From NCBI GenBank assembly GCA_947585595.1, contig CANPXB010000002.1, forward strand, positions 6,841-70,840: a DNA stretch of 64,000 nucleotides, read 5' to 3'. Source of the stretch: an uncultured Bacilli bacterium. Lineage in GTDB: Bacteria > Bacillota_I > Bacilli_A > RF39 > UBA660. Numbering within the stretch: the first letter of the stretch is position 1; each line of letters opens with the position of its first letter. This document shows positions 14,641-42,046 of the stretch, piece after piece. The position numbers and the translations under genes were made by a program. The notes under the pieces are model-generated. The model did no database searches. It was not told where the DNA came from and saw only the letters and a list, made by a program, of their open reading frames with translations.

Positions 14641-14670
14641 GCACCAGAAAGTTATAAAGCGAATATAATA
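14641..14670 (+). promoter_or_regulatory. Putative SigK-type promoter of the ytlA-like operon
   Basis: GCACC-N16-AATATAATA resembles the SigK consensus (AC-N16-CATANNNTA, one mismatch), followed by AGGAGG RBS. Low specificity in AT-rich DNA. Confidence 0.4.
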
Positions 14671-14694
14671 TTAGTATAAATAGGAGGGATTTTT

Positions 14695-15278
14695 TTGAAA
14701 AAAACGATTGTTATTATATCTAGTTTAGTCTTAATAATCTTATTAGGATTACTATTATTTATTAATTATAAAGATAATAAAAAAGACAATCTTACTAAAA
14801 TTAAACTAGCTGAAGTTACCCATAGTATGTTCTATGCTCCATTATACGTATCAATTGAAAATGGTTACTTCAAAGAAGAAAGCTTAGATATTGATTTAAT
14901 CTTGACTAGTGGTGCTGATAAAGTAAGTGCCGCTGTCTTATCAAATACTGTTGATATAGGTTTTGCTGGTCCTGAATCAGCTATCTACGTTTATAAAAAT
15001 GGTGAAAAAGATTACTTAGTAACCTTCGCAGGTTTAACTAAAAGAGATGGTCAATTTATTGTCTCTAGAAAACCAATTAAAAATTTCACTATCAAAGATT
15101 TATATGGTAAAGAAATACTACCCGGTCGTCAAGGTGGAATGCCTATATTAAACTTCTTAAATGCTGTTAAAAATGCTAATGGTGATATTTCTAAAATAAA
15201 TATTAATTCAAGTATTGATTTTGCTTCCCTATCAGGATCATTTATTTCTGGTGTTGGTGACTTTGTTAATCTATTTGA
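14695..15278 (+). CDS. ytlA: NitT/TauT-type ABC substrate-binding protein, 5' segment of split gene
   Basis: AEVTHSMFYAPLYV...GRQGGMP...DFVNLFE matches B. subtilis YtlA as I recall it. Interrupted at LFE|P; the unexcised ORF stops at 15294. Confidence 0.88.
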
Positions 15279-15306
15279 ACTTAATGCAACATAAAGAAGT
15301 CGCTAA
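15274..15306 (+). repeat. attL of element 1
   Basis: GAACTTAATGCAACA (15277-15291) vs GAACCTAATGCAACA (32087-32101), 14/15 identical. Confidence 0.9.
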
Positions 15307-15331
15307 AAAACAACCAACTTAGTTTTCAATC

Positions 15332-15383
15332 AAAAAAAGAGTAATTTCACTTTAATTTTTAAAGTCAAATTTACCCTTTTTTA
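15332..15383. terminator. Imperfect hairpin with A/T tails just inside attL1
   Basis: AAAAAAAGAGTAATTTCACTTTA...TAAAGTCAAATTTACCCTTTTTTT inverted repeat. Confidence 0.45.
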
Positions 15384-15525
15384 TAAAAACGTTAAACATA
15401 GTTTGTATTTCATCATTTTGGATTACTTTAAACAACAAAATTTATTAAAGCTATAGTAAAGCATAAGTACTATTGCTCATATGAACCAAAAATTAATTTT
15501 AAAATCTCATTAGTTAATAATACAT

Positions 15526-16500
15526 TTACCAGTTAATACCTGTTAGAGTAGCTTGAGCTGTATTTATTGAATCAAACTTGCTCGCTATGCCATTAGAAAC
15601 ACTTATTCCACCACCCATATCAAATGAAATGCTGTATGAAGTGTTAGTTGCATCACCTTGTAAATGTTTATAATCTCCATAGGCATTTAAAACAGAAATT
15701 TTATCCTTAGTATTTTTTTCAACTTCAAAATACATATCTACTTCAATTGTCGTACCAGAAACAAAATTTTGAGGTTCTACAGGATAATTGAATTCAACAA
15801 TATATCCTTGACTACTCAATGTCCAAGTATTTGAGTCTCCAAAATAATAGCAACTTTTCCCGTTATCATAGTATGCGCTAAATCTTTTTGTGCTTGAAAC
15901 TCCATATACCTTATTGTCTTCTATACCTATGCTGATAATATCTAATGTTTGCCAATATGGAAGCTTTTTCCATTTAACATGATTTTTATATCTGTATCTT
16001 CCATTTACACTAACAATAGTAGTTGTCATTTCTTTGTATTCTGTAACTGTTTTACCTGGTGTTAAACCCTGAGCCGATTCTTCATTAATTAATTTTTGAA
16101 CATCAATACTATCATATTCCTCTTTAGTGATTTCTCTAGAGTGTGTTAATAAGACATTAGATATATAATTATAATTTCCATTGGGAATAATAGTAGTAGT
16201 TTCATAATACTTGGTAGTAGATGCCTCTACATGTCCTTTTAAATCTTTATTTTCATTAAATTCATTTCCACGCATATGGATAATATCAGTATCTGTAAAA
16301 CCTAAATTTCTTAAATTGTCAACATTCTCTTCGGTCATCTCTATACCATTTTGATTAACATAGATACCATTTTCAATATTTATATTTGTCTCCAATGCTG
16401 AAACATTCTGAACAAATAATATACTAATTAACATTGTAATTAGCAAAAACAATTTTTTCAAAATTATCACTCCTCTATCTTTGAAAGAATATCTATGCAT
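15526..16500 (-). CDS. Secreted hypothetical protein (paralog of 16597..17313)
   Basis: Signal peptide ending VSA, shared motif TEYKEMTTTI...YRYKNHVKW...DIISIG. Confidence 0.75.
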   Translation of the reverse strand: MHRYSFKDRGVIILKKLFLLITMLISILFVQNVSALETNINIENGIYVNQNGIEMTEENVDNLRNLGFTDTDIIHMRGNEFNENKDLKGHVEASTTKYYETTTIIPNGNYNYISNVLLTHSREITKEEYDSIDVQKLINEESAQGLTPGKTVTEYKEMTTTIVSVNGRYRYKNHVKWKKLPYWQTLDIISIGIEDNKVYGVSSTKRFSAYYDNGKSCYYFGDSNTWTLSSQGYIVEFNYPVEPQNFVSGTTIEVDMYFEVEKNTKDKISVLNAYGDYKHLQGDATNTSYSISFDMGGGISVSNGIASKFDSINTAQATLTGINW

Positions 16501-16596
16501 AGTTTTTTCTTTCTAAATAAAATGATATTATTCTTTTTTTCAATTATAAAGAACCAATTTGTCGAAATACCGAGCCTGTTTTTCACAATCAAAAAA

Positions 16597-17313
16597 TTAC
16601 CAGCTTCCACTCCAAGATGTTTGTGCATAATTAATTTCATCATAATAGTCTTTTATTGAACTTTTTAATGACAAGCCATCAATATTAACTGAATAATTTA
16701 AAGCATTACTTAAAGAAATAGATTTCACTGCATGAGCATAATCCCCAACCGCTATTTGTTTTAAAATTGTAGCATCAACATCTTTTTCTACATCAAAATA
16801 TAATTTTTGACCTAAAGAAATATAATTTCCCGAAGGCAATAAAAATGTTACTCCAACACCATTAGCAAATTTTTTTAAAGAATAATCATTATCAGTATAA
16901 CAATCATTAACCGAAGTACAATATGTTTGACTAAAATTGATATTTTTAGTTTTAACACTTGAATAACGACCAATAGATATAGTATCATAACTCCTAATCT
17001 TAGGTAATGTATTCCAAAGTAATTCATTTTGATATCTAAATCCTGACCCATTAGACAATATACTTGTTGTCATTCTTTTATAAGCAGTTTCAATGGTTGC
17101 ATTACCTATTGTTTCTACAGGATTATTAAATTCATCCTCACTTATTTCCGTATCAATAGCAATGTATCTATTGCTGTTAATTGACCTAATTATTATTATT
17201 TTAAAAAATTTTTCAGACTGACTAACAACAATATAATCTTCATCATTAGCATAAACAATTAATGGAAATAGAAACATAAACATTATTAATATAAATTTTC
17301 TCATTTCTTTCAC
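16597..17313 (-). CDS. Secreted hypothetical protein (paralog of 15526..16500)
   Basis: Signal peptide ending VYA, TAYKRMTTSI...FRYQNELLW...DTISIG, C-terminal Trp. Confidence 0.75.
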   Translation of the reverse strand: MKEMRKFILIMFMFLFPLIVYANDEDYIVVSQSEKFFKIIIIRSINSNRYIAIDTEISEDEFNNPVETIGNATIETAYKRMTTSILSNGSGFRYQNELLWNTLPKIRSYDTISIGRYSSVKTKNINFSQTYCTSVNDCYTDNDYSLKKFANGVGVTFLLPSGNYISLGQKLYFDVEKDVDATILKQIAVGDYAHAVKSISLSNALNYSVNIDGLSLKSSIKDYYDEINYAQTSWSGSW

Positions 17314-17410
17314 CTCTTTTCTAAAACAAAAATTCTTTTGTTTAAAATATTTTAAATTTATAATACAAAAATAAAAATAGCTATTATTTCACATTTATGA
17401 GACAAAATAG

Positions 17411-18154
17411 CTATTTTCTTTCAAATTTAAGTTTAAAATCAAACACCTTTAGTTCATTATTGATAATATATTTAATTCTAAGCGACAAATTATTTTCATC
17501 AATTTCTACATTTTCATTTTCAGTATCCAACTCAATGTTAATATTTTTTAAGAATTCATTTATACTTTTCGAATCATTACACCCATCAGAACGATAATTA
17601 TAAACATTATTATCATTAGACACTAAAGATACATCTACATTATTAATCAATAATTCTTTGCTAGTACCTATATATTTTTCGTTATATACTAAATTGTTTA
17701 TTATTACTATCTTTCTAAATTTATTAACCATAAAATATCCATCTAATATAAAATCTTTATTATCAGAATGAATTTCATATATTTTATATTCATTTACTTT
17801 AAAAGAAAATAATGCAACTACAAAAATAAGGGTAATTAGCGTTAACATTATAGCACCACGCTTAATAAGTTTTGATTTAAAACTTGAATTATAATATTTA
17901 ATGGCTTCTACTTCAGCTTTAACACCAGTTTTTAAATTATGTTCTTGACTTTGTCCGTTTAATAGTTCCGATAAAGAAATATCAAGAATCTTACACAATG
18001 GCTCTAATAACGAAATATCTGGTAAACTAACAGCACGTTCCCATTTAGAAATCAATGTACGATCAACATCAAGCTTACTTGCCAGTTGCTCTTGAGTTAA
18101 ATTATGTAATTTTCTTTGCTCAGCAATAAATTTACCCACTTTTACTTGATCCAT
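17411..18154 (-). CDS. XRE-family HTH protein with TM helix and extracellular domain
   Basis: LTQEQLA...ISKWERAVSLPDISLL, TM near aa 100-118. Confidence 0.85.
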   Translation of the reverse strand: MDQVKVGKFIAEQRKLHNLTQEQLASKLDVDRTLISKWERAVSLPDISLLEPLCKILDISLSELLNGQSQEHNLKTGVKAEVEAIKYYNSSFKSKLIKRGAIMLTLITLIFVVALFSFKVNEYKIYEIHSDNKDFILDGYFMVNKFRKIVIINNLVYNEKYIGTSKELLINNVDVSLVSNDNNVYNYRSDGCNDSKSINEFLKNINIELDTENENVEIDENNLSLRIKYIINNELKVFDFKLKFERK

Positions 18155-18182
18155 TTAATCACCATCTTAAACATTGAATATT

Positions 18183-18521
18183 TTATTTATAAAACTCATC
18201 GATACTAATCTCAAAAACATCTGCTAATTTATAAAGATTATCACTACTAATATTTTTATATTTATCATTAGCATTTTCTAATCTCTGATAATATTTATTA
18301 GATATTCCTAATATCGAAGAAATATTTATAGTACTATAAGAATTTTCAGTACCCTTTTTGTTATCATAAAGCTTTTTATATTCATCATAATGCTCTTTTC
18401 TAATTCTTTTAACGTTCATACAAATTCTTTTTCTGACTTCTACCAAGTTCCATTTTGATGACTTTTCATACATTTCATAAATTTGAATTATTTTCAAAAC
18501 AATCACCAAATTTATTATCAC
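18183..18521 (-). CDS. Small HTH (XRE-like) protein
   Basis: ISSILGISNKYYQRLEN...LYKLADVFEISIDEF. Start uncertain. Confidence 0.6.
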   Translation of the reverse strand: MIINLVIVLKIIQIYEMYEKSSKWNLVEVRKRICMNVKRIRKEHYDEYKKLYDNKKGTENSYSTINISSILGISNKYYQRLENANDKYKNISSDNLYKLADVFEISIDEFYK

Positions 18522-18715
18522 ATTGATAATATATAGTTTTGCCTATGTATAAGGACACTTTTTGCTATTTTATTCATTACTGCATAATAATAAAATTATT
18601 AATAGAATATTTGGTTTATAAGTTAAAATAAATAGTACAATAAATCATTAAAAATCTAAATAAAAAATTCTTATTCGTGATATAATAAATATGAAACAAT
18701 TATATTAAATGAGGA

Positions 18716-19366
18716 GTGTTTAATTTGAAAAAGAAAATTTTAATAGCATTAGGAATAATAGCAATAGTAGCAATAACAAGTTTTATATCTATTACAGTGT
18801 ATAAAAACTATAATAGAAAAATTGATATTCGTGAAGCTAACAAAAGTTGGAATATTTATGATGAAAACATTAATGATATCAAAGCTAATATGGATTCTAT
18901 TATGGAACCAAATAAAGACTTTGATTGGGGAAAATTAAAAGATTTTGATATCAAAGATGATGACTATGAACAAGCATTAGGAGAACTAGCTAGCGACATT
19001 AAATGGTGTTATATTGGATATACCGACGAAGGTGAATTTTATACTGATTCAAACCCTATAAGAAAATATAGAGATAAAAAATATATTACAAAAAAAGAAT
19101 TAGAAACATTAAATTTCTATTCAAAAAGTGATAGCTGCTTAAATAGGTTTAATGGATTCTTTGGTGTGAAATTAAGTGATAACAAAGAATTAGAAGAAAG
19201 ATTACAAAAGCACCTAAAAAATATAGATTTAAATAGTAAATCAAAATTATTTTCCTATTATGACCAAGCTACTTATAATGAACTTTTAATGCGTAAAATA
19301 AATGAAGTTCAATTAGTAAAAGAAGCTAGTGATTTCTTAGTAGAAGAATACAATAATCTAAAATAA
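18716..19366 (+). CDS. Hypothetical membrane-anchored protein
   Basis: N-terminal TM, GAGGAG RBS, upstream TATAAT. Confidence 0.7.
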   Translation: MFNLKKKILIALGIIAIVAITSFISITVYKNYNRKIDIREANKSWNIYDENINDIKANMDSIMEPNKDFDWGKLKDFDIKDDDYEQALGELASDIKWCYIGYTDEGEFYTDSNPIRKYRDKKYITKKELETLNFYSKSDSCLNRFNGFFGVKLSDNKELEERLQKHLKNIDLNSKSKLFSYYDQATYNELLMRKINEVQLVKEASDFLVEEYNNLK

Positions 19367-19620
19367 CTATCCATAAAAATTAATAATTAAATTCAAATAT
19401 AAATATTTGTTTATGACATAGAATGAAATTTTTACATAGTTAGTAATGATTTTTTAAAAAAATATAAATTAAATAAAGAATATAAATTAAAAAAATAGAG
19501 TTCAAATAAAATAACTCTATTTTTTTAAAAGCCAAAAAAGAAAGAATATTAAATAAAAAAATATAACGCTTATATATTAGATTGTACAAATTGCCTAGGA
19601 AAATGATTATCTAAAATTAA

Positions 19621-19650
19621 TTTGAACTTAGTGCAGCATAAAGAAGTCAC
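19621..19650 (+). repeat. Internal degenerate copy of attL1
   Basis: TTTGAACTTAGTGCAGCATAAAGAAGTCAC vs TTTGAACTTAATGCAACATAAAGAAGTCGC (15274-15303), 27/30 identical. Confidence 0.85.
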
Positions 19651-19664
19651 CTATAAGTAAAATT

Positions 19665-20232
19665 TTACTTTAGAAATCTCTGAGGGACATCTTCTTTTTT
19701 TATTGTAGAAAATTCTTTTGAATCTAAATCAAATCTCACATAATTATCTCTATCGATTTCCTTATAATATACAAATTTATCATCTTTTCCTAATAAACTT
19801 ATATTTCCATTGTAATGGTTATTAAATTCTTCTAAATTATCAATTACATTACCAGTAGTACAATCATATATTTTCTTATCGCCAACTAACCATATCAGTT
19901 CATTATCCTTTAAAGCAATTACTTTTGAAATACCAATAAGATTCATACTATCAAAACTTGGTTTACTAATTTTTTTAAATTTATTGTTTTCAATCGGAAT
20001 ATACACATTATATATTGTTATTTCTGATCGTATTTTTATTATTATAAGCTATTACGCATTTTGAACTTTGAAGTGCAATATCTAAATCTTCTATAGACAC
20101 AAGATCACTATTACTTTGCTCTTTATTATTTTGTTCTTTTGTATGTATACCTACAATTACCATACCCATAACTATAATAACTATTATTACTACTAATCCA
20201 ATTATTAATTTTAAATTTTTTTCATAAAACAT
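19665..20232 (-). pseudogene. Probable frameshifted membrane-anchored protein (two ORF-track fragments)
   Basis: The frame of 19665..20006 extends upstream (KIRSEITIYNVYIP) to an A-run inside the 20008..20232 ORF, so a 1-nt shift joins them. Confidence 0.5.
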
Positions 20233-20277
20233 ACTCCTTTGATATATTTTATCGGAAAAAGCAAACCATTTAGTTTG

Positions 20278-21264
20278 CTAATTAGTACCTATCTTTTCAA
20301 CTTCTTTATTTAATATATCTAAATAATCTTTTTCGGCTATCGTTAAATGAGTAGCCATATATTTATCATATTATTCATGAGCCTTTTTTAAAGCTTGCTC
20401 ATGAGAAATAACTCCTTTAGAATTAAGAATATCTTTTCTTGTCATTTTCAAAAATGAATCTAGTTCATTAATCCAATCTTGCATTGTCATAGTTCTTCTT
20501 TCTAAAGCATTAATTTCTGCAATATCTAAATAAGCAGATACCATTCTATTTAAAATATTTAATTCATCCTCTGTTAAATAATTTTTGGCAACCTCTGTTT
20601 CACTTCTAGTCGGATAGTCACCCTTAAAATTTGTAAGTCCTAAATAATCTTTTTCAGAATCAGCTCTTGTAAAGATAATTTCAGCAGCGGTTTGATGAGA
20701 AACAGCATAATGCATTTTATTTTGAATTGTTTTAAAAAACTGAACCGAAAGATTATTTTTTGGATCATAATCTACACTTGTTGCATAAAGATCTAATACC
20801 TTACGCCAAAATACTTTTTCTGATGATCTAATATCACGAATTCTTGCTAATAATTCTTCAAAATACGGATTTGTTCCATTATTTTTTAATTTTTCATCAT
20901 TAAGAGCAAATCCTTTTATCATATATTCTTTTAGTACTTTAGTCGCCCATATTCTAAACTCCGTCGCTTTTTTAGAATTTATACGATAACCAACTGCAAT
21001 AATGGCATCTAAGTTATAATGTAAAACATTATATTTTTTCCCATCAGAAGCAGTTGTTAAGAATTTCTTAACAACTGAATCCTTTTGTAATTCACCATCT
21101 TCAAATATATTCTTTAAATGCATAGAAATATTATTTTTAGTTGTATCATAAAGATTAGCCATTACATCTTGACTCATCCAAATAGTTTCATCTTCAATAC
21201 TGACATCAACTCTTACATTTCCATCGCTAGATACATAAATAATCATATTGTTTTTCATAGCCAT
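20278..21264 (-). pseudogene. RhuM-family DNA-binding protein with premature stop near the C-terminus
   Basis: YNLDAIIAVGYRINSKKATEFRIWAT, RIRDIRSSEKVF. TAA at 20371-73 is followed in frame by YDKYMATHLTIAEKDYLD...GTN*. Confidence 0.75.
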
Positions 21265-21338
21265 TACCTCCTATCACTTATATTATACTAAAAATAAGTG
21301 TTAATCTGTAATTTTTATGAAGCTAAATATATAATTAA

Positions 21339-22367
21339 CTAATCTACTTTCTCACTACTATACCAATAATACTTACCATTTTTATCTTTTCTAAAAGTAT
21401 GTTTATATAATCCACCTTTACTAAAGTCTTTAGTATTAGAATCTATCAACTTATCTTCATCTACATGAGGTGAATCATAGTACTTTTTCCCATCGATATC
21501 ATAAGTAATCATTATAAAACGATCATAAATTTCTATTGCATTACCCGCCATTTCAAAATGATCATACATAGTTTCAAAATGTTCTGGAGAGGTATCTCCT
21601 CCTACCTCTCCATGACATAGGAAATTATCTTTTTCTTCCGAATACAAACAAACTCCCGTAACTTCAATAGCAAAACTCTTTAATGGCATTACCTTATCAT
21701 CACCAAATAATCTATGATAAGCTTTTTCTAATTTTTCTTTATCTACATCATAGAATCTCCACTCTACAGGTGATCCTTCTACCAAAACTTCTGGATCTTT
21801 TAAACATATTGTTGATAATTCTTCATCATTAAAATAATAACTTTTTAAATCTTCACAAGAACTTATATTAATACGTTTTGGATCTTTAATCGTTTTATAT
21901 GCATAATATAATTTTGCTTCATCACTTAATTTCTCATACTCATTACCATTAGAATAAAAATTATTACTAAAATTCATATATTTAGCAAAAGAAGGATATA
22001 TATCTGAAGGAGTATATACTTCTATCATATCGTATAAACTTCTCGCTATATTATAATTATGAATATAATAACAAACTAAGAATAATGGTGTTATACACAA
22101 AACTAAAATTATTAAAACAATATAACACTTTTTAAATTTTTTATTTTTATTAACAGAATCACTACTTCCTAATAATAAGTCATCTACAGATACACCAAAT
22201 ATTTCACTTAATCTAACTAAAGTAGAGGAATCAGGTATCGTTTCTCCTCTTTCCCATTTACTTACTGCTTGCCTACTAATGGGAATCATTTCTGCTAACT
22301 TACTTTGACTTAAACCCATCTTAGTTCTTAACTTTAAAATTAATTTACCAGTCTTTTTATTATCCAT
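21339..22367 (-). CDS. XRE-family HTH protein with TM helix and extracellular domain
   Basis: LSQSKLAE...SRQAVSKWERGETIPD, TM at about aa 80-100, Cys-containing ectodomain. Confidence 0.85.
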   Translation of the reverse strand: MDNKKTGKLILKLRTKMGLSQSKLAEMIPISRQAVSKWERGETIPDSSTLVRLSEIFGVSVDDLLLGSSDSVNKNKKFKKCYIVLIILVLCITPLFLVCYYIHNYNIARSLYDMIEVYTPSDIYPSFAKYMNFSNNFYSNGNEYEKLSDEAKLYYAYKTIKDPKRINISSCEDLKSYYFNDEELSTICLKDPEVLVEGSPVEWRFYDVDKEKLEKAYHRLFGDDKVMPLKSFAIEVTGVCLYSEEKDNFLCHGEVGGDTSPEHFETMYDHFEMAGNAIEIYDRFIMITYDIDGKKYYDSPHVDEDKLIDSNTKDFSKGGLYKHTFRKDKNGKYYWYSSEKVD

Positions 22368-22450
22368 AAAATCCTCCTACATCTTTCATAACTAAAACTA
22401 CTATAAAACAGTTAAAAAAGAAAGAACTTTTTAAGTTCCTCTAACTATTT

Positions 22451-23458
22451 TTATTTTAAAACAACTTCATCAATATAAGAAGATAAATAATTCTCCTCTA
22501 ATTTTAATCTCTTATTTTCAATAATAAAATTAGAAACAACCGGAATATTGATATTATCACCTTTAACTTCAATATCATCTCTATAATAAGTCAATACATT
22601 ACCATTTATTTCATATATACCAGTTGAACGTTCAATAGCATAGTAATCACCTTCATCTCTAACGTATACCTGCATTATTCCCTCAAATACCTTACTATCA
22701 CTACTTATACCAGGCAAAAAAGCAATATGTATTTTTTCATCTTCATTTTCATAATGAAAAAATGCTAATAATTTACCTAGTTTTTTACCATACTCATTAA
22801 TCTTTAACATATTACAATAATTTCCATATCTAACATCATAAGTTATAGTGTTATATAAAATATGATTTTCTACTTGGTAATCTACTATTGTAATATTAGA
22901 TTCTTTATCATAGTAATAAGCCGTATTATTACAAGTAATATGTTCTAATTTGTTAACATAATTTTTCAATTCACTTTTTAATACATTACTACCCCTTAAA
23001 CACTTAAAAGAGTAACTATTTTCATTATGTTTCATTAAGAATGAGAATTTAGGGACTCCTAAATTAATAGAATTATCATTACTACCATACTCTACTTGTA
23101 TAATGTTGTATCCAAAAGGCAATAGCTTAAATAAAATAACTAATATTATCAAAATAATTGGTATAGCTAGTATAATATTTCTTCTATTTAATTGTTTTCT
23201 TATTTTAACTCTTTCTTCTTCTAATATCTTTTCAACCTTTATATTCTTTTTATTCTCAATTTGCAATAACTCATAAATATCGGTATCTAATACTTCAGCT
23301 AATTTTTCTAAAATAGAAATATCTGGCAAACCTATTCCACGTTCCCATTTACTAACCGCTTTATCTGTAACAAATAATTTAGCTCCTAGTTCTTGTTGCG
23401 TTAAACCTTTCTTCTTTCTAAGAGCAGCAATATTCTTACCAATTTCATTCATATTCAT
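22451..23458 (-). CDS. XRE-family HTH protein with TM helix and extracellular domain
   Basis: LTQQELGAKLFVTDKAVSKWERGIGLPDIS, TM at about aa 95-115. Confidence 0.85.
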   Translation of the reverse strand: MNMNEIGKNIAALRKKKGLTQQELGAKLFVTDKAVSKWERGIGLPDISILEKLAEVLDTDIYELLQIENKKNIKVEKILEEERVKIRKQLNRRNIILAIPIILIILVILFKLLPFGYNIIQVEYGSNDNSINLGVPKFSFLMKHNENSYSFKCLRGSNVLKSELKNYVNKLEHITCNNTAYYYDKESNITIVDYQVENHILYNTITYDVRYGNYCNMLKINEYGKKLGKLLAFFHYENEDEKIHIAFLPGISSDSKVFEGIMQVYVRDEGDYYAIERSTGIYEINGNVLTYYRDDIEVKGDNINIPVVSNFIIENKRLKLEENYLSSYIDEVVLK

Positions 23459-24249: not shown

Positions 24250-24313
24250 CAACATCTCTAAATAAACCTATCTCGACTTTTAGTTTACCAAAAGAAAAAA
24301 AGCACCTCAGTGC

Positions 24314-32902: not shown

Positions 32903-32925
32903 TGCTTGAATATTCTAAACACACT
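32895..32925 (+). repeat. attL of element 2
   Basis: CAAAGAGTTGCTT (32895-32907) is identical to 40930-40942. Confidence 0.92.
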
Positions 32926-32949
32926 TTCTATCATAAAAAAACTGATAAA

Positions 32950-33927
32950 TTATTCTTTATCAGTTTTAATCTCTTTAACTTTTTTAGGTTTAATAGCTAA
33001 GAAACATATTGTTCCCGCTAAACCTACTAAAGCAACACCAATAATAATTTCTACTATCTTAGATAAGCCATCTTCTTCATCGGTAATCTCTTCTTCATTA
33101 TTATCTTTACTTTCTTCATCATCGTCTCCATCTTCACTATAATCATTATAGTCATCATAATTATCATCATCACCTGATACTCCAGATCCATTACTATCTG
33201 TTCCATTATTAGATGAAAATCCGTTAGAAGAATCATTATTACTTGAACCACTATTACTAGAACCATTACTACTATTACTACTTGATCCACTACTTTGTGA
33301 TCCATTATTACTTACATTATTACCCGAAGAAGATTGATTATCTTTGTTATCATCTTTCTTATCATCAGTATCTTTTTTATCATCGTCTTGCTTATTATCA
33401 TCTTGTTTATCATTATCAGTACTAGGACTATTTATTTTATAGGTAAATGAATGTGTTCCTAATTCAGGTGTTAAATTCTTTGAATACCAATCATTAGCAA
33501 CAATTGTTAATTTAGTACACTCAAATGAATAAGTTGTATTACTTTTCGCATCACTTTCAAAAATAATATTTCCTAGAACTAATTCCTTATTAGCATTTAA
33601 TAAGTTATGACCAGTACCTACTCCCCCAGTTGATACAATTATTCTTATAGTATGATTATTTTCATCATGTTTAATTTCTTTAGTACTACTTTTAGCTACA
33701 TTACTATCAAGATTAATTTGTTTATATTTAACATTACCACTATATTTTAAAGTAATATCAAATCCCCCAACAAACCCTTCTTCAAAATGCAAAGTAGCTT
33801 TTATATTACCATTGCTATTTTCACTAAATGTTAATTTATCAGCAGCACTAACTGAAGTAAGTGAGATAAAGATGCTTATTACAAATACGACAATAGCTGT
33901 TATAACTCTCTTCTGCATCTTTATCAC
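32950..33927 (-). CDS. Membrane-anchored cohesin-like protein with D/K/S/N-rich stalk
   Basis: Signal peptide, ~135-aa beta-sandwich pattern (GGFDITLKY...IRIIV...LGNIIFE), low-complexity linker, C-terminal TM plus basic tail. Confidence 0.6.
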   Translation of the reverse strand: MIKMQKRVITAIVVFVISIFISLTSVSAADKLTFSENSNGNIKATLHFEEGFVGGFDITLKYSGNVKYKQINLDSNVAKSSTKEIKHDENNHTIRIIVSTGGVGTGHNLLNANKELVLGNIIFESDAKSNTTYSFECTKLTIVANDWYSKNLTPELGTHSFTYKINSPSTDNDKQDDNKQDDDKKDTDDKKDDNKDNQSSSGNNVSNNGSQSSGSSSNSSNGSSNSGSSNNDSSNGFSSNNGTDSNGSGVSGDDDNYDDYNDYSEDGDDDEESKDNNEEEITDEEDGLSKIVEIIIGVALVGLAGTICFLAIKPKKVKEIKTDKE

Positions 33928-36900
33928 TCCTTATTACTATTTAAATCTGAACTAGTTATCTTCATTTTTGGTAATTGATTATAACCTAACTCTTTAACAT
34001 TTACCGCTTTAGAAGTACTAGTTAATCTTTGACCTTCATTCGTCTCGGCATCATTAACACGATACAAGTAAGCACGAATAGATTCTTCAGCAGCTAACAT
34101 TGCTTCATATTGCTCTTTAGTCATTACATATAACCAAGTACCACTAGCAACTTCATATACTGATTTATCACTATTTAATTCAGCAAAGATCAATTGATAT
34201 CCACCATAATTTTTCGTTCCATTAGATGCATTACCTATTAATAGGACATTAAATGCTGGATTACCACGATAAGTACCTTTAATTACAACTGAACCAGCTT
34301 CAATCTTACCTTTAACTTTTCCATTTTCGTCTTTAACTTCATCCTTGCATCCTTCTGTTAAATAACAGTAATCTTCTTCTAAAACTCCAATAGATGGTTT
34401 ACCATTATCTACATCAATATCAACATTATCTCCAGGAGGAGCAATAACATCAATTTCTGCTCCAGATAAACCAGTTATATTACCAACAGATTCTATCTTA
34501 ATATAAGTAATATTATTATAAGTCCATAATTGATTCTTACTATCAGTACCTTCCTTCATGAAGTAGATAGTTTTTTCAGCACTTTCAGCACTTAAATCAA
34601 ATGATCCAGTACCAGCAAGAGTCCAACTATTATCATTACCAGTCGCACTTACATAAATATTATATTTATTAATTGTATTAGAATCTAATGCTCCGTCAGT
34701 AACTATCGCTTTATACTTAATACCACTTACAGACATTGAATTATTTAAATTAATAATTACATAAGCATTACTATTATCATCAGATGCACTAGGTTTATCT
34801 CCACTAATATTGTATTGTTTAATCTTTTCTGTACCTTTAAATACCGTATCAACTCTACCATCAATTAAGTTATTTACTTTTAATGTAGAATAATCCATCT
34901 TTTCATCTTCAGCATTAACAACTTCATTAGGTTCTTTAACATTAGATGTAATTGTAAAGGCATCTTTCTTAACGCTACCATCATGAGCTATTTTAACTTC
35001 TTCTAAAGTAACTTTCTTTGTAGGTGTTAAATAATAATCATAAGCAACTACTGAATATGTATAAGCTCTATTATTTTCTGCTCCTACATTATCAACAAAC
35101 TCACTAACATTATCTTTATTTTCGACAAAGGCAATTGGTACATCATTACGTAAAATTTCATAACCTAGTATTTTATCAGAATCAGCTTTTAAACCTAAGT
35201 TAATTGTTACTCTTTTATTTCCTGCATCAGTATTCTTAATACTAGCCGTTAAAATATCTGCATCATTAGTAATACCTTGACTACCAGCTAATTTATAACG
35301 CCATGCCTTATCATTTAAATAATAGATAGGTCTAGTTTCTTCAGGATATCCTAATTCCTTAATTTCTGCTTTTAATGTATCACTCGCATATAAACCCCAA
35401 GTTTCAAAGAACTTAGTTAAATCTTTTTCTACTGCTTTAGAAGCAAATAGAATAGTTAAATCATCACGACTATATTTCTTTTCTGTATTAGAATAAGCTC
35501 TACCTATTTTATTTACTCTAGCTAATACAGAGTCTTTATCTTCAAAAGTCTTACCTTCATCATAAGCTAGATGTAATTGCCAATACATACCAAGTTGAAC
35601 AAATACATTTTGGGCTCTTCCTATTGTATGTGAAGTAACTTTATCATAAATCTTATCATAACCTTGAAGTTCTAATCGTGAATTATCTTTATCATTACTT
35701 GTTTGCGCAAGTAAAGCATAGATATTATTTGTTACTTCCGCAAATACAGTACCACTTAAATTGATTTGGTGACCAACTTCATGGCTGATACCCCAACCAA
35801 AGTAACCAGTTGCATCTGCTCTATTTCTATGAGCTGTAACAAGACCACCAATTGAACCATATTCAATACCTACATGATATCCCCCAGCATACATAAACGC
35901 TCCATAGAACATCTGCATGTAACGAATATTAATTCTTGCTTTAGGCATTTTATCCGCTGATTTTGTATCATCTGTTTCAATAAATCCCTTTTGACGATAG
36001 AAGAATTCCATCATTTCATCAAATGCTTCCATTGATTCATATAAACGATCAACTTTTTGATCAGTACTAGTAAGCCCTGAATCTAATGCATCCTCTACCG
36101 CTTTACTTGATACAGAGAATAATCCATATTTTGTAACTATTTCTGTTGAACCTAAAACACTTGTCCCTTTATTAAATGTACCTTTACCTTCACTTGCATA
36201 AACACTATCAAGTTTGCTATTGTAATTTTTTAATTCTTCAATATATTTTTTAATTTCTGCTTTTTTCTCGGTATCATCCATAAGTAATGTTGTATCAACC
36301 ATTGGTATTTTAGTACCACCACTAACACGTACTTTAATTGGTGTATTCGCATTAGGAGTTGATGTATAACGAATATATACACTACCACCACGTTCAGCAT
36401 CAACTGATGAACCAATTGTTGGTACTTGAATTATATTTAAACCTTTATTTAAACTTACAACACTATTCCATTCACTAGCTTCTGCATGATATTGCGTAAA
36501 CACTATTTGCGCATTAATTGGACCATTTGATCCAACATAAACATTTAATGTTTCACCAGGTCTTGCTATAACACCTAATGGTTGATAATCACTAATTGTC
36601 ATTGCAAATTTAACATGATTATTATAATAATTTGATATATTTGGATTTAGTTCAATAACATCATCAATTTTTTCATCTTTTAATATCTTTTCTGCATATT
36701 CTAAATCAGCTAGAATACTTGCTTTATAAGGATTATCTTCACCATGATCTTGTTCATTTGCTCTTTTTCTTAATTCATCAATCTTTTCTTGATTAACCCC
36801 ATCAGCTAAAACTAATCTTAAATCATCAGTAAATAGTTTAGCAACATCATCAACTAAAGAATCATAATGATAGAATTTAACTTCATCTATTTGAATATCA

Positions 36901-39152
36901 TTAACATTATTAGCAACAGTTAAAGCAAAAGATACTGCTCTCGCTTCAATTGGATCTTCTAGTTTTAATAAATAATATTTACGTTCCATTTCATCGTATT
37001 GAGCCGTTAAAGTCCCTTTAACAACTTTACGATCAGTATTATCATAAATAGTATGTTCAGTGTCCCAATAATGTACTTGAATATCATTACTATTAGGTCC
37101 ACCTGATTTTAATGAAGCTGCATAACTATCTGGAACAGTTAAAACAAATTCATCCATTTTATATAAATTATCTAAAACAATAACTGGAGCTCCTGTATTA
37201 AAACCATTATGAGCAGATATTTGCCAATCTTTATGAGCCCAATAAGTATTAAAGTCATCATCAACCATTGAATACTTATTATCATTGGTCATTGTTCCTG
37301 TATGATAATGAACTTCTTTAATATGATTTGTTTTACCATTTTCTACTGTATCATTAATTAATTTATATTTAGGATATATTACTGCACCATTAGCTTTAGT
37401 TCTAGCTTTAACTAATGTATAGTCATTACTCTCCCCAATTTCATTAACACCTATTACATATCCTTCATATTCAGTACCAGCTTTTAATCCTCTTGCTTGA
37501 TAATTATCAGTTTGAAGATTATCTACTAATGTATATTCATTAGTACCTACTTCACGATAGTAAAGTTTATAGTATTGGGTATCATCCATCTTTTTCCACT
37601 TGAAATCGATACCACCATAAGCACCTACAGCACTCACCATATCTACTTTAGGAGCACGTCCATTAGCTTTCGGAGTTCCCTCATGAGCATCACTCCATCC
37701 ACTGCGCCATTCTTGGTTACTAGATTGAACATAAATTTTATATGTTTGATAATTTTTTAAATCTTCAATCGTAAAAGTTGGAAAAGTTGTTTGGAAAATA
37801 ACTCCATTCATCTTACCACCAACTATTTTAATTTCATAACCAGTTACATTTGGTACACTATCAAATGTAATAGTTAATTGTTCACTCTTAGTATCATCAA
37901 TATGAATATTTTGTGGTGTATAAAAACCATCTGGTTCTTTTGTTTCTACTTTTACATTATTTAAGAATTCTACTTTAGCTATTTCTGCTAAATTAGTACT
38001 AGAAGATTCTGTAATAACAATCGTTACTTTTTTAACTGCTACTTGTTTGCCTAAATCAACCTTAATAGTATCATCAGAATTATCTTCCGTAAATAAATGA
38101 ACTCCTTCTAATCCTTGATCAGGATCATCAACTGTATATTCTAAAGTTTCATTACTATCATCTATAACAAGTAATTTCATTTTCTGTGGAACATTTTCTT
38201 GTCCAACTCCAATTCTTACTTCACTCATTTCGATAGCTTTATCTTCACTACCACCTAAGTCTAAATCTAGTTGAATTGGATTTTCTTCTGATATATCACT
38301 ATTACTTTTTAATTTTACTGTTCCATCTTCATTAAATAAATTATCTAAACTACTACCTTCTTCTAATATTGTTCCTTCAGCTAAACAAAATGAAACATTA
38401 TCACTATTCATTATGGCGCTAGTATCCTCTATTTTAATTTTCTTTTCACTAGAATTAATAATCGCTGTAATATAATTTAAATCTGCTACATCAACACTAC
38501 CATCTAAATTTAAATCTTTACTAAGATCATTACTTTCTATTGCTTTAATCATTTCTTTTTCATCATTAGTATCTACTTTATTATCTTGGTTAACATCACC
38601 AATTTCAAATAACCCTTTTTCATCAGATAAACTAATTCTTTTTGAAAAATCTTTTAATTCTACTGGAACATTATAAGTAACAAAATTCTTTCCCTTAAAT
38701 TCTAAATTATATTTACCAGTATTTAAGGAATATAAATTTATACTATAATAAACAAGATTATTATTTTCTAAATTACCTCCAAGTAATTTTCCATCATAAC
38801 CACGTTTAGTAATCATTACACGGATGTTTTGTGAATTTCCTTCACTACCTAAACTAATATGGTTTTCATAAATACCATCTTGTGCACTATTCACATCACT
38901 TAAATTAATTGATGCTTTATTATTACTTTCATCAGTTATTGATAGAACTATTCCATTATCTTTACCATCTCTAACTGGTAATGCTAATTGAAATTCTATT
39001 TCTATATTTCCTTTAGCTTTGATATTATTAGCACTAATAGTTGTTATTTTACTAATATCACTTTCTAAAGCCATTACTACTAATGGTGAAATGTTATTGA
39101 ATAACATTGCCATTACTAATAAAATTGATAAAATCCTGTTCCAAAATTTCAT
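33924..39152 (-). CDS. Secreted M60-like (enhancin/mucin glycopeptidase) metallopeptidase with dockerin, FN3 and CBM32-like modules
   Basis: WGISHEVGHQ...AEVTNN (HExxH...E), duplicated Ca-loop GDVNQDNKVDTND...DLNLDGSVDVADL, two FN3 repeats, F5/8-like segments. Confidence 0.88.
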   Translation of the reverse strand: MKFWNRILSILLVMAMLFNNISPLVVMALESDISKITTISANNIKAKGNIEIEFQLALPVRDGKDNGIVLSITDESNNKASINLSDVNSAQDGIYENHISLGSEGNSQNIRVMITKRGYDGKLLGGNLENNNLVYYSINLYSLNTGKYNLEFKGKNFVTYNVPVELKDFSKRISLSDEKGLFEIGDVNQDNKVDTNDEKEMIKAIESNDLSKDLNLDGSVDVADLNYITAIINSSEKKIKIEDTSAIMNSDNVSFCLAEGTILEEGSSLDNLFNEDGTVKLKSNSDISEENPIQLDLDLGGSEDKAIEMSEVRIGVGQENVPQKMKLLVIDDSNETLEYTVDDPDQGLEGVHLFTEDNSDDTIKVDLGKQVAVKKVTIVITESSSTNLAEIAKVEFLNNVKVETKEPDGFYTPQNIHIDDTKSEQLTITFDSVPNVTGYEIKIVGGKMNGVIFQTTFPTFTIEDLKNYQTYKIYVQSSNQEWRSGWSDAHEGTPKANGRAPKVDMVSAVGAYGGIDFKWKKMDDTQYYKLYYREVGTNEYTLVDNLQTDNYQARGLKAGTEYEGYVIGVNEIGESNDYTLVKARTKANGAVIYPKYKLINDTVENGKTNHIKEVHYHTGTMTNDNKYSMVDDDFNTYWAHKDWQISAHNGFNTGAPVIVLDNLYKMDEFVLTVPDSYAASLKSGGPNSNDIQVHYWDTEHTIYDNTDRKVVKGTLTAQYDEMERKYYLLKLEDPIEARAVSFALTVANNVNDIQIDEVKFYHYDSLVDDVAKLFTDDLRLVLADGVNQEKIDELRKRANEQDHGEDNPYKASILADLEYAEKILKDEKIDDVIELNPNISNYYNNHVKFAMTISDYQPLGVIARPGETLNVYVGSNGPINAQIVFTQYHAEASEWNSVVSLNKGLNIIQVPTIGSSVDAERGGSVYIRYTSTPNANTPIKVRVSGGTKIPMVDTTLLMDDTEKKAEIKKYIEELKNYNSKLDSVYASEGKGTFNKGTSVLGSTEIVTKYGLFSVSSKAVEDALDSGLTSTDQKVDRLYESMEAFDEMMEFFYRQKGFIETDDTKSADKMPKARINIRYMQMFYGAFMYAGGYHVGIEYGSIGGLVTAHRNRADATGYFGWGISHEVGHQINLSGTVFAEVTNNIYALLAQTSNDKDNSRLELQGYDKIYDKVTSHTIGRAQNVFVQLGMYWQLHLAYDEGKTFEDKDSVLARVNKIGRAYSNTEKKYSRDDLTILFASKAVEKDLTKFFETWGLYASDTLKAEIKELGYPEETRPIYYLNDKAWRYKLAGSQGITNDADILTASIKNTDAGNKRVTINLGLKADSDKILGYEILRNDVPIAFVENKDNVSEFVDNVGAENNRAYTYSVVAYDYYLTPTKKVTLEEVKIAHDGSVKKDAFTITSNVKEPNEVVNAEDEKMDYSTLKVNNLIDGRVDTVFKGTEKIKQYNISGDKPSASDDNSNAYVIINLNNSMSVSGIKYKAIVTDGALDSNTINKYNIYVSATGNDNSWTLAGTGSFDLSAESAEKTIYFMKEGTDSKNQLWTYNNITYIKIESVGNITGLSGAEIDVIAPPGDNVDIDVDNGKPSIGVLEEDYCYLTEGCKDEVKDENGKVKGKIEAGSVVIKGTYRGNPAFNVLLIGNASNGTKNYGGYQLIFAELNSDKSVYEVASGTWLYVMTKEQYEAMLAAEESIRAYLYRVNDAETNEGQRLTSTSKAVNVKELGYNQLPKMKITSSDLNSNKE

Positions 39153-39310
39153 ATAAATTCACCTCGCTAATATTATATAGTATGACAAGATTTCTGACAA
39201 TAGAATTCTTTCATTTTTCGCCTAAAATATCCCAAAAAGTTCTACATATTAAGAATCTTAATATAATAATATTAAGTAATAACTATTTATTATTAGCGAG
39301 GTGATTTATT

Positions 39311-39406
39311 ATAACTTTCCATATTACTAATTTGTATCAAAATATAACTAAAGAAATTATTAATTATAAACTATCTCTTATTATTAAATTAATGGAGCAG
39401 AATTAA
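39311..39406 (+). CDS. Possible 31-aa ORF translationally coupled to LSR2
   Basis: GAGGTGA RBS at 39298, non-canonical ATA start, stop overlaps the LSR ATG (TAATG). Confidence 0.35.
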   Translation: MTFHITNLYQNITKEIINYKLSLIIKLMEQN

Positions 39407-40914
39407 TGAATAATTATCTAAGAGTTGGTATCTATTTAAGATTATCTAAAGAAGATAAAGATAAACTAAATAAAGAAGATGATAGTGAGTCAATCAAGAA
39501 TCAACGCCATCTTCTTTATGATTATATATCTCATCATAATAACTTTATCTTAGTTGATGAATATTGTGATGAAGACTTATCTGGTGCCGGTACTTATCGT
39601 CCTGAATTTAATCGTTTAATTAATGATTGTGAAAATAAAAAAATCGATATTGTTCTATGTAAAAGTCAATCCAGATTCTCTCGTGATATGGAGATAATCG
39701 AAAAGTATCTTCATAATAAATTTAATGAATGGCATATTAGATTTATCAGTCTTGCTGATAATGCTGATACTTTTAATTTAGGTAACAAAAAAGCTCGTCA
39801 AATAAATGGTTTAGTTAATGAATGGTACTTAGAAGATATATCTAATAATATTCGTAGTGCTTTTAATTCTAAAATGAAACAAGGTGAACTAATCTCCCCA
39901 TTCGCCCCATTCGGTTATGACATTAATCCTTTAGATAATAATAAATTAATCATTGATTCTCCTGCTTCTTTAATAGTTAAAGACATCTTTAATCTTTACT
40001 TAAAAGGATATAGTTTTACTAAAATAGCTAATTATTTAAATAAACAAAATATCCCTAGTCCATCCTATTATAAATATTTAAAAGGTATTAAACTTAATAT
40101 CGTTAGTTCTAAAAAAAGAGAAGATATCTTATGGTCGAATAATGCTATTAAAAATATTTTAACTAATGAAGTATATATTGGTAATTTAATTCAAGGCAAA
40201 AGAACTACTATTAGTTATAAAAATCATAAAGTAATCAAAAAAGAACCTCATACCTGGTTAAAATCATTAAATACTCATGAACCAATTATTTCTAAGGATA
40301 TCTTTAATAAAGTTCAAAGTATTATTAAAACTAAAAGTAAACCTCTTAAAAAAACTGGTCTTCTCAATCCCTTTTCCCATAAAGTATATTGTTTAGAATG
40401 TCATCACTTAATGCGGAAGAAAAATTCATCTCTTCACGAATATCTTTATTGTCCAAACCCTCTATGTTCTAACCCTTCAATTAGATATGATACATTATCT
40501 AATCTTATTTTAAATCATTTAAATTCTTTAATAAAAAACTATTATAAAGAAGAATTATTTCATAACTACCTAAATAAATTAAATAAAGACAATAACTTAA
40601 TTAAAGAACAAAAAGAATTAGAAACTAAGATTAAACATAATCAAAATATCTTTATAACTTTATATGAAGATAAACTAAACAACTTAATAACTCCATTAGA
40701 ATATAAAAAATTACTAAGTACCTACCAAAAACAAAATATTATTTATAAAAAAGAACTTAAACAAATAAAAAATAAATTATTAGCAAAAGAAAATATCTCT
40801 TTCAATCAATTTACTAATTTAAATAAAATAATTACTGATGAATTTATTACTAAAATATATATTAGTAAAATAAATAAACAAAATAGAGAGATAAAAATTA
40901 TTTGGAATATATAG
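39406..40914 (+). CDS. Large serine recombinase of element 2
   Basis: YLRLSKED...SESIKNQ, DEDLSG, KSQSRFSRD, APFGY, Zn ribbon CLEC...CPNPLC. Confidence 0.96.
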   Translation: MNNYLRVGIYLRLSKEDKDKLNKEDDSESIKNQRHLLYDYISHHNNFILVDEYCDEDLSGAGTYRPEFNRLINDCENKKIDIVLCKSQSRFSRDMEIIEKYLHNKFNEWHIRFISLADNADTFNLGNKKARQINGLVNEWYLEDISNNIRSAFNSKMKQGELISPFAPFGYDINPLDNNKLIIDSPASLIVKDIFNLYLKGYSFTKIANYLNKQNIPSPSYYKYLKGIKLNIVSSKKREDILWSNNAIKNILTNEVYIGNLIQGKRTTISYKNHKVIKKEPHTWLKSLNTHEPIISKDIFNKVQSIIKTKSKPLKKTGLLNPFSHKVYCLECHHLMRKKNSSLHEYLYCPNPLCSNPSIRYDTLSNLILNHLNSLIKNYYKEELFHNYLNKLNKDNNLIKEQKELETKIKHNQNIFITLYEDKLNNLITPLEYKKLLSTYQKQNIIYKKELKQIKNKLLAKENISFNQFTNLNKIITDEFITKIYISKINKQNREIKIIWNI

Positions 40915-40942
40915 TGTCTTTATTTCCTTCAAAGAGTTGCTT
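40913..40942 (+). repeat. attR of element 2
   Basis: AGTGTCTTTA and TTCAA arms are inverse to TAAACACACT and TTGAA of attL2. Confidence 0.92.
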
Positions 40943-41271
40943 TAATCAGAACACTTGCTATTAAACCTGATATTCTTTTCTTAGATGAACCATTCTCTGC
41001 TTTAGATTTCCCTACTAGTTTAGAAGTAAGTAATGATGTTTATCGTATTATTAAAGAAGAAAAGAAAACCGCTATTATGGTTACTCATGATATATCATCA
41101 GCTATTAGTATGGCCGATAAAATTATTGTCTTAAGTAAAGGACCTTCCATAATTAAAAATATTTATCAAATAAAATTAACTAAAAAAGATATACCAACTA
41201 TTAATCGTCAAGATGATAAATTTAATTACTATTATGATTTAATCATGAAAGACTTAGATAATATTGTCTAA
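40938..41271 (+). CDS. ytlC: ABC ATPase, 3' segment of split gene
   Basis: Frame reads ALIRTLAIKPDILFLDEPFSALD (Walker B, D-loop)...MVTHD (H-loop). The joined gene is 750 nt / 249 aa. Confidence 0.9.
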
Positions 41272-42046
41272 AGAACAAGAACTATTTTTAAAGAAGTATA
41301 AAAAAAATAAAAGAATTATTCTTTTAATTCAAATTCTCATCATTGTTGCTTTTCTTCTAATATGGGAATTACTAAGTAGATATCATCTTATTAATTCTTT
41401 TATTTTTAGTAGTCCTACTAAAGTAATTAAAACTATTTATCATCTATATCTTAAACAAGAATTATTTAAACATATATTAATAACTATCTATGAAACTATT
41501 ATATCTTTTATTATTGGTTTATTTATAAGTATTATTTTATCAATCTTATTATATCTATATCATAACTTTTATAAAGTAATGGATCCTTATTTAACTTGTT
41601 TAAATTCCTTACCTAAAGTAGCATTAGGTCCCATGATAATTATTATCGCCGGTGCTAATACCAAAAGTATTATTCTTATGGCTATCTTAATTAATGTTAT
41701 TGTTAGTACTATTGTTATTACCAATGGTTTTTATAATACTGATAAAATCAAATTAAAATTAATGTTATCTTTAAAAGCTAATAAATATCAAACATTAAAA
41801 TATTTAGTTATACCAAGTTCTTATAAAACAATTATATCTTCTTTTAAATTAGGTATAAGTATGAGTTTGATTGGTGTTATAACCGGTGAATTTCTAGTTA
41901 GTCGTGCTGGTTTAGGTTATTTGATTATCTATGGTACACAAGTCTTTAATCTAGACTTAGTAATTAGTGGTATTTTACTTTTAATTATCATATCATTTAT
42001 TCTATATAAATTAGTTGAATTATTAGAACATAAATTATTAAGTTAG
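41264..42046 (+). CDS. ytlD: NitT/TauT-type ABC permease
   Basis: FSSPTKV, NSLPKVALGP, GVITGEFLVSRAGLGYLI. Overlaps the ATPase stop. Confidence 0.9.
   Translation: MSKEQELFLKKYKKNKRIILLIQILIIVAFLLIWELLSRYHLINSFIFSSPTKVIKTIYHLYLKQELFKHILITIYETIISFIIGLFISIILSILLYLYHNFYKVMDPYLTCLNSLPKVALGPMIIIIAGANTKSIILMAILINVIVSTIVITNGFYNTDKIKLKLMLSLKANKYQTLKYLVIPSSYKTIISSFKLGISMSLIGVITGEFLVSRAGLGYLIIYGTQVFNLDLVISGILLLIIISFILYKLVELLEHKLLS

Follow-up and report, generated by a model that had tools for sequence, protein, structure and literature searches.

Two recombinase-bearing islands split one importer operon

The stretch of 64,000 nucleotides (nt) analysed here (hereafter, the window; contig CANPXB010000002.1 of assembly GCA_947585595.1), which belongs to an uncultured member of the Bacilli (RF39, UBA660) and has a base composition of 26% G+C, carries on its plus strand a three-gene ATP-binding cassette (ABC) importer operon for a substrate-binding protein (SBP), an ATPase and a permease, present as five pieces (Table 1). 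The SBP frame that begins at 14695 can be read to codon 15277-15279 (...VNLFE), is followed by four foreign codons and a stop at 15292-15294, and is taken up again at 32090. That of the ATPase, from 32487, ends right after the signature motif LSGGMKQRVA, with a stop at 32907-32909, and resumes at 40943, and the permease gene is intact. The SBP halves match consecutive parts of an NMT1/SsuA-like profile (positions 12-106 and 158-281) and the ATPase halves consecutive parts of a SaoA-type ATPase profile (positions 2-142 and 140-243). Joining the halves by their coordinates removes inserts of 16,810 bp (SBP) and 8,035 bp (ATPase) and yields genes of 990 nt (329 amino acids, aa) and 750 nt (249 aa), both with zero internal stops, such that the ATPase start overlaps the SBP stop and the permease start overlaps the ATPase stop, as in a normal operon. 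In a relative with an intact operon (G019), the sequence is continuous through both break points; therefore, the splits are real insertions. The initial annotation, made from the letters of the window, had described both stops and resumptions, an intact large serine recombinase (LSR) with attachment-site (att) cores in each insert, and stop-free products of 329 and 249 aa with normal operon overlaps; coordinates, profile matches, protein domains and shared cores bear it out on each of these points.

The core found at both ends of element 1, the SBP insert, consists of GAAC, one mismatch and TAATGCAACA, whereas element 2, the ATPase insert, has at both ends a 13-bp core, CAAAGAGTTGCTT. Because the attL and attR sites of relatives have GAAC alone in common, the crossover of element 1 most likely occurs within these four bases. 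Beside the core of the ATPase site (site 136), the element-side arm (window positions 32908-32930) is kept across species, with a run like AAGAACACAAAAAAA in L267, L270 and L271; this arm, which echoes the AGAACAC of the host-side arm, is probably a recombinase half-site.

Both LSRs, LSR1 in element 1 and LSR2 in element 2, combine the Resolvase (PF00239), Recombinase (PF07508) and Zn-ribbon (PF13408) domains of large serine recombinases, and they are 23% identical to each other. They are the two LSR genes of the 1.55-Mb assembly, both within this operon, LSR1 lying ~200 bp inside attR1 and LSR2 ending 16 bp before the attR2 core. Both inserts share three features with gene-intervening elements of the skin, SPbeta and gin class: they lie inside coding sequences, their removal restores the frame, and each carries its own serine recombinase at its edge. 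An identity as XisF-type heterocyst excisases was rejected, with scores of 95.7 and 95.2 bits for LSR1 and LSR2 against an NCBIfam equivalog cut-off of 375. The best phage and IMG/VR relatives of the two LSRs are at most 44% identical over full length, and, but for a weak endolysin-like match in the N-terminus encoded at 18716-19366 (E 2e-4), the elements are free of genes for phage structure, packaging or lysis, so that we also rejected a prophage identity for both.

The G+C content of the islands is host-like (0.249 and 0.277). Element 1 carries a dlt-kind gene set (an AMP-ligase, a carrier protein and an MBOAT protein, dltA/dltC/MBOAT-like; 24314-28657), an MBL hydrolase, a RhuM protein, five proteins of the XRE-HTH type (four of which have a membrane segment) and secreted proteins that belong to no known family. 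Three of the XRE-HTH membrane proteins stand in tandem at 21339-24226, two of them (22451-23458 and 23543-24226) being almost identical over their first ~80 residues; one contig in each of two public sequencing runs (X1 and X5) omits 22441-23539, a copy-number polymorphism within element 1. Element 2 encodes a 1742-aa surface protein with M60-like peptidase and FN3 domains (33924-39152) and a 325-aa membrane-anchored protein (32950-33927).

The combination of an NMT1/SsuA-type SBP, an ABC ATPase and a BPD_transp_1 permease in one operon identifies the system as a NitT/TauT-type importer, whose permease is the only one of its type in this genome. The nearest solved structures, 4nmy and a ThiY-like binder, are both weak matches. 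In Bacillus subtilis, ytlA-ytlC-ytlD encode a transporter of the same class (NMT1-type SBP, NitT/TauT-like ATPase and permease) that is not reported to be interrupted, and we use their names as a class label for the operon only. Divergent from the operon lies the gene of a 796-aa, highly acidic protein without a Pfam family (12237-14627, minus strand); this left neighbour, of 683 aa there, also stands beside the intact operon of G019, and the intergenic region common to the two may hold both promoters.

The layout does not depend on the window's own assembly. Contigs of public runs span attL1 (runs X1, X5 and X7), attR1 (X5) and attL2 (X5 and X6), although these four runs, one recorded as from a rabbit gut and three, of a second study, as from other gut samples, may include the window's own source and so give limited independent support. 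Independent support against misassembly comes from other species with the same kind of layout, including the circular long-read chromosome of the relative L114, and the check that the initial annotation had called for on this point thus came out in favour of the layout.

Table 1. Coordinates of the interrupted operon, its two elements and associated features in the window
Feature	Position	Strand	Remarks
Operon promoter, sigma-K-type	14643..14670	+	-35 AC 14643-14644, 17-nt spacer, -10 AATATAATA 14662-14670
SBP gene, 5' half (NMT1/SsuA-like)	14695..15280	+	Codons 1-195; TTG start 14695; ribosome-binding site (RBS) 14682-14688
attL1 core region	15277..15291		GAAC, one mismatch, TAATGCAACA
Element 1	15281..32090		16,810 bp
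LSR1, large serine recombinase	30275..31894	-	539 aa; clade tied to SBP site C
46-aa open reading frame (ORF), candidate recombination directionality factor (RDF)	31881..32021	-	Overlaps LSR1 start by 11 nt
-10-like box, sporulation-sigma class	32036..32043	-	CATAGGGT; 22 nt upstream of the 46-aa ORF
attR1 core region	32087..32101		
SBP gene, 3' half	32091..32494	+	134 codons and stop
ATPase gene, 5' half	32487..32907	+	Walker A through signature motif
attL2 core	32895..32907		13 bp, CAAAGAGTTGCTT
Element 2	32908..40942		8,035 bp
33-aa ORF	39305..39406	+	No canonical start codon seen; ends on LSR2 start; conserved beside LSR2-clade genes
LSR2, large serine recombinase	39406..40914	+	502 aa; clade tied to ATPase site 136
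attR2 core	40930..40942		13 bp
ATPase gene, 3' half	40943..41271	+	Walker B, H-loop, C-terminus
Permease gene (BPD_transp_1)	41264..42046	+	Whole

Six sites and six recombinase clades in the family

We mapped breaks in this operon over the window and 100 further genomes of its family (one per genus, 0.5-1.6 Mb each), using the intact G019 proteins as queries on the fetched loci. Of the 100 sampled genomes, 77 yielded the permease and 78 the SBP. Counting the window, 30 of 79 operon-bearing genomes have LSR-associated breaks, with 39 insertions in total that fall on a few fixed places: residues ~62-75 (3 genomes), ~143-150 (7) and ~188-198 (8; site C) of the SBP, ~136 (7) and ~190 (5) of the ATPase, and ~206 (9) of the permease. 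Both intact and interrupted alleles thus emerged from the survey of relatives that the initial annotation had proposed. Its view of the double interruption as a singular oddity was wrong, multiple occupancy being a common state of this operon in the family: eight genomes bear two or three insertions, among them G089 with three and G093 with two within the SBP gene, and the window's own pair (SBP site C and ATPase 136) recurs in G064 and G094. Six more genomes (G024, G070, G016, G091, G022 and G039) are broken at contig ends at the same places with no LSR in view and are considered as probable only, and three with extra intergenic DNA that lacks an LSR (G056, G025 and G059) were not counted. 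In one of the latter (L083, G056:C6:5000-19000), ~6.7 kb separate apparently whole SBP and ATPase genes, and no LSR was found in the G056 genome; the insertion is of a different kind.

Inserts in the family range from 1.5 to 17 kb, and the recombinase is their sole common content. Every same-strand split in the fetched relatives (27 of 27) can be joined in frame and free of stops, each join restoring the residues that intact genes have at that place; this extends to the twice-split SBP genes of G089 and G093, where even a 50-residue middle piece can be rejoined. The joins were guided by alignment, a procedure whose picks for the window SBP and L084 were off by one or two residues.

In a maximum-likelihood tree of 36 full-length LSRs, from which four partial contig-end sequences were excluded (site B of G093 and the permease site of G030, G028 and G046), six clades coincide with the six sites with SH-aLRT (Shimodaira-Hasegawa-like approximate likelihood ratio test) values of 95-100. 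The site labels need 5 changes on this tree, the minimum possible, against a mean of 23.1 when shuffled. All 36 LSR frames are open and contain the catalytic motif. The 101 genomes of ~1 Mb hold 348 matches to the LSR Recombinase domain, with a maximum of 19 (G068), which is a very heavy load for genomes so reduced.

A scan of one genome per GTDB species with the LSR1-clade alignment, which returned 242 relatives, gave a denser picture of site C. Among the best 80 loci, 73 (each a different species) show an SBP gene broken at residue 188-198 beside an LSR1-type gene, with both halves in 44, the C-half only in 14 and the N-half only in 15. The seven others comprise five contigs shorter than 6 kb plus L135 and L173, and a full-length SBP gene was found in none of these 80 loci. 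About 20 of the 80 also have an ATPase N-half that ends at residue 135-142. The nearest relatives of the window, L102 and L103 (LSR1 72% and 70% identical), share the same double layout. L114 and L115 have a seventh break, at SBP residue ~92-95, which together with site C and ATPase 136 amounts to three interruptions.

Split genes under purifying selection

The ratio of nonsynonymous to synonymous divergence (dN/dS, or omega) was taken from close pairs only, as distant pairs are saturated (medians 0.28-0.37). Among the window, L102 and L103, omega is 0.11, 0.09 and 0.07 for the ATPase N-half, with synonymous divergence (dS) of 0.42-0.63 (0.42-0.48 for the first two values, which compare the window with L102 and L103), and 0.15, 0.14 and 0.10 for the SBP C-half; close pairs of the SBP N-half give 0.03-0.10. 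Control ATPase and permease genes that are intact give 0.05-0.10 in close pairs. The supposition that the halves are undecayed is therefore upheld by purifying selection of the same order as on intact genes (0.03-0.15 over all halves). For the recombinases, the same three genomes yield dS of 0.63-0.66, close to that of host genes, and omega of 0.27-0.28 for LSR1, and dS of 0.87-1.08 and omega of 0.21-0.29 for LSR2. Since the three share the interruption and their LSR1 dS is close to that of host genes, both insertions predate their split, and these values indicate that selection has kept halves and recombinases ever since. Values this low are difficult to reconcile with the presence of dead genes in such small genomes.

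A sigma-K-type promoter and a tie to sporulation

The SigK-like promoter that the initial annotation had placed near 14641 lies at 14643-14670 and is conserved across the family. The strict motif (AC, 16-17 nt, CATATAATA) stands ~25-50 nt before the SBP start in 31 of 40 distinct family loci, against 0.16 of 40 in shuffled sequences and 0.19% of random genome windows, and a looser pattern is present in 37 of the 40. At the -35, 29 of 36 anchored sequences have the C of AC, though C is rare in these genomes, and a single one has the G of the sigma-A TTGACA. In the window's own genome, only four sites combine the strict motif with a following RBS and ORF; therefore, it is not the housekeeping promoter. 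The other three ORFs, a guess at the rest of the regulon, belong to uninformative families. In Clostridioides difficile, sigma-E and sigma-K promoters are described as having the -10 box in common and differing in the -35 (ATA versus AC), and sigK P2 as having a -10 CATATAAT and a -35 AC (PMC3789822), boxes that the operon promoter matches. From a promoter of sigma-K type one would expect the operon to be transcribed late in sporulation, in the mother cell. The SigK control that the initial annotation gave for the B. subtilis genes has a source as well, ytlA, ytlC and ytlD being listed among sigma-K-regulon core sporulation genes (PMC3416734); their function is listed as unknown (PMC11466899).

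The operon follows SpoIVA in the family sample, being carried by 76 of 87 SpoIVA-positive and 2 of 13 SpoIVA-negative genomes, counts that come from related, not independent, genomes. The genome of the window encodes the sporulation sigma factors on which the initial annotation had made its reading depend, with spoIIGA directly upstream of sigE and an uninterrupted sigK, together with an intact spoIVA and spoVAD; the Spo0A model was matched strongly over its C-terminal half only.

The mother-cell gene spoIVA is also found in two pieces in the family, with a break near residue 117-126 in at least 11 of the 101 genomes and near residue 401-407 in G064. Examples are G087:C10:14171-14545 and 24539-25663, G082:C2:72632-73003 and 75618-76745, G048:C3:119351-119716 and 101884-103005, and G064:C15:7331-8548 and 1076-1351, with LSR genes between or beside the halves (G082:C2:74613, G087:C10:23510, G048:C3:103733 and G064:C15:2073).

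Small ORFs precede the recombinases. One stands in the place of the 46-aa ORF next to LSR1 in 53 of the 80 LSR1-clade loci, 40 of which have a common motif. Of the 53, 41 have a CATANNNT box at a distance of 18-45 nt before the ORF start (3.8% of random windows contain one), and nine more have CATATAAT at -13; by its sequence, this box is assigned to the -10 class of the sporulation sigma factors, and not to sigma-A. Similar small ORFs precede the LSRs of other clades too. No consistent promoter box was found upstream of the LSR units of these other clades, a CATA-type box in the site-B clade being read by eye only. The ORF next to LSR1 has no Pfam or PHROG match. Given their analogy with the 42-aa GirX of the gin element, we take the small ORFs beside LSRs (33-57 aa) as candidate directionality factors, the one of LSR2 being a putative accessory factor or RDF.

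Developmental excision and the alternatives

The explanation that we favour, and consider probable, is developmental excision of the kind known for skin, SPbeta and gin, most likely specific to the mother cell. As long as cells grow, and in the forespore, the islands would stay, and their cargo, the dlt-like genes and the M60-like surface peptidase, would serve the vegetative cell. In the terminally differentiating mother cell, each LSR would recombine its attL with its attR, probably helped by its small partner ORF as directionality factor, and the island would leave as a circle. The 329-aa and 249-aa genes would then be rebuilt precisely, and the transporter would be made only after both excisions. 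Excision as such, when and in which cell it would take place, and what the small ORFs do are inferences. Over the whole family, the balance tips slightly towards a broader reading in which the operon is a sigma-K-driven docking platform for at least six co-evolving LSR lineages, to be rebuilt by one to three mother-cell excisions and thus acting as a multi-input AND gate at the DNA level.

Several observations weigh against developmental excision. No joint of attB or attP form, such as one from ~15280 to ~32091, occurs among the 15 joints listed for the four runs over 14300-34299, where contigs drop rare variants, and a search of the window's own assembly for an extra contig with an attB- or attP-like junction found none. 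A scan of metagenome contigs for an empty site, with a 26-nt query that ends at the core, returned eight contigs, all of other species (66-79% nt identity; five are uninterrupted and three have their break at this point too), and thus gave no empty site of the same strain, although assembled contigs could not have revealed a minority excised form. At attL2, record 12 of X5 ends exactly at 32907, while records 13 (X5) and 21 (X6) begin at 32878; this 30-nt overlap at the core (32878-32907) looks like a branch in the assembly graph and is at most a hint. In L074 (G064:C17:3000-19000), the SBP halves around an LSR1-type gene lie on opposite strands (N-half 12243-12842, plus; C-half 7513-7118, minus), so that excision could not rebuild the gene, only inversion could; the layout may have arisen by secondary rearrangement or be a switch that works by inversion. 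Some inserts in the family, of 1.5-2.6 kb, leave little room for a directionality factor. Internal stops appear in the high-scoring segment pairs of a few split fragments (SBP N-half, 2 of 49; ATPase N-half, 2 of 19) and may be read-through past the junction. On the side of control, no consistent promoter box was found upstream of LSR2-type units, the sequence of the LSR1-unit box does not separate sigma-E or sigma-K from sigma-G, the operon -10 contains TATAAT, which makes use by sigma-A possible, and spoIIID was not found in the window's own genome (96% complete).

The main rival, which we judge unlikely, is that the insertions are plain knock-outs, with the operon as a tolerated landing pad from which the islands leave only on transfer to another cell, the transporter being off while an island is in place. 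The absence of an excision junction from the contig data agrees with it, as do the coexistence of empty and occupied alleles among species and a cargo that is useful and devoid of sporulation genes. The mobility of the elements also speaks for it and against our preferred explanation: the identity between some LSRs far exceeds that between their hosts (96% versus 53% and 88% versus 69%), which indicates that elements move between genera, and for this reason the conservation of the halves could partly reflect time spent uninterrupted. Against knock-outs, the omega values equal to those of intact genes come from pairs that share the interruption and have host-like LSR dS, and all 27 splits rejoin in frame in genomes of 0.7-1.5 Mb, from which dead genes should vanish. 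A neutral pad does not explain, either, that six LSR clades converge on one 2.3-kb operon that receives 39 of the 348 LSR matches. The selection data and this convergence weaken the knock-out explanation.

Regulated excision that rebuilds the genes in response to another trigger, such as stress, starvation or induction of transfer, with whole cells losing the island, seems to us improbable, more so than knock-outs. SPbeta is described as excising both on induction and in sporulation, and phage LSR/RDF systems as answering stress (PMC4191935). Extended -10-like TGNTATAAT boxes, read by eye, lie upstream of LSR1 in G087 and G089, and the lack of a sporulation-type box upstream of LSR2 fits such a trigger. 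Excision in the germ line would, however, lose islands that do not replicate, yet both are kept in three related species and also in the contigs of the four runs; moreover, the promoter of the operon is of sigma-K type and the operon tracks spoIVA. Finally, the chance that chimeric contigs or faulty binning placed foreign islands into the operon is close to nil: the assembly has 55 contigs and an estimated 6% contamination, but attL1, attR1 and attL2 are spanned by contigs from among four runs, which stem from at least two studies, the architecture is the same in 73 of 80 other species, including a circular chromosome, and the islands are host-like in G+C.

Comparison with known gene-rebuilding systems

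Developmental excision, our preferred explanation, has well-described counterparts. In the skin element of sigK (B. subtilis and C. difficile; recombinase SpoIVCA), an LSR stands, as here, at the border of the element, which splits a gene of the mother cell. Skin elements of different species are reported to have the recombinase alone in common (bioRxiv 10.1101/2022.02.25.481979), and in C. difficile a directionality factor is described as giving cell-type specificity (PMC5025042). In contrast with skin, the target here is a transporter operon and not a regulator, sigK being uninterrupted, and a single operon has six sites with six LSR clades and holds up to three elements. The gin element in gerE of Bacillus cereus is non-phage, and its GirC and 42-aa GirX are described as rebuilding a gene of the sigma-K period (PMC5595907). 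Our elements are non-phage too, with small ORFs similar in size to GirX, whereas these ORFs have no sequence similarity to any family and the cargo is large and useful to vegetative cells. Other mother-cell genes from which elements are reported to be developmentally excised are spsM (SPbeta, with SprA and SprB; PMC4191935), and spoVFB, spoVR and yabG (vfbin, vrin and yin, respectively; PMC10747680). These are prophages or prophage-like and occur one per gene, in contrast with the islands described here, which lack phage structural genes.

In heterocysts, several elements (in nifD, fdxN and hupL), each with its own recombinase (XisA, XisF and XisC being involved), leave the genes of one pathway in a terminal cell; XisA and XisC are tyrosine recombinases. 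The AND-gate logic is the same as that proposed here, in a different phylum and a different kind of differentiation.

A literature search with supplementary tables outside its scope returned no report of ytlA, ytlC, ytlD or spoIVA as interrupted targets. In spore formers, the known cases of developmental gene rebuilding each involve one element in one gene of a cultured species (sigK, spsM, spoVFB, spoVR, gerE and yabG). New here are the importer operon as a target, the non-phage cargo islands, the fixed sites each with a dedicated LSR, and the frequent multiple occupancy, a pattern that spans dozens of uncultured gut species in a host group known from metagenomes alone. If excision is confirmed, it would be the first case in Firmicutes of a single operon rearranged in several steps, and it would indicate a real role in sporulation for the uncharacterised ytlACD-type importer. 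It would also provide natural orthogonal LSR/att pairs whose target sites are separated by a few hundred bases, together with candidate directionality factors 33-57 aa long, and would suggest that islands of host adaptation (dlt-like genes and a mucinase-like M60 peptidase) survive by hiding in genes for which only a dying cell has a use. If the operon is indeed a docking platform of this kind, then, together with the split spoIVA genes, these reduced genomes would use DNA editing in terminal cells far more than any cultured spore former.

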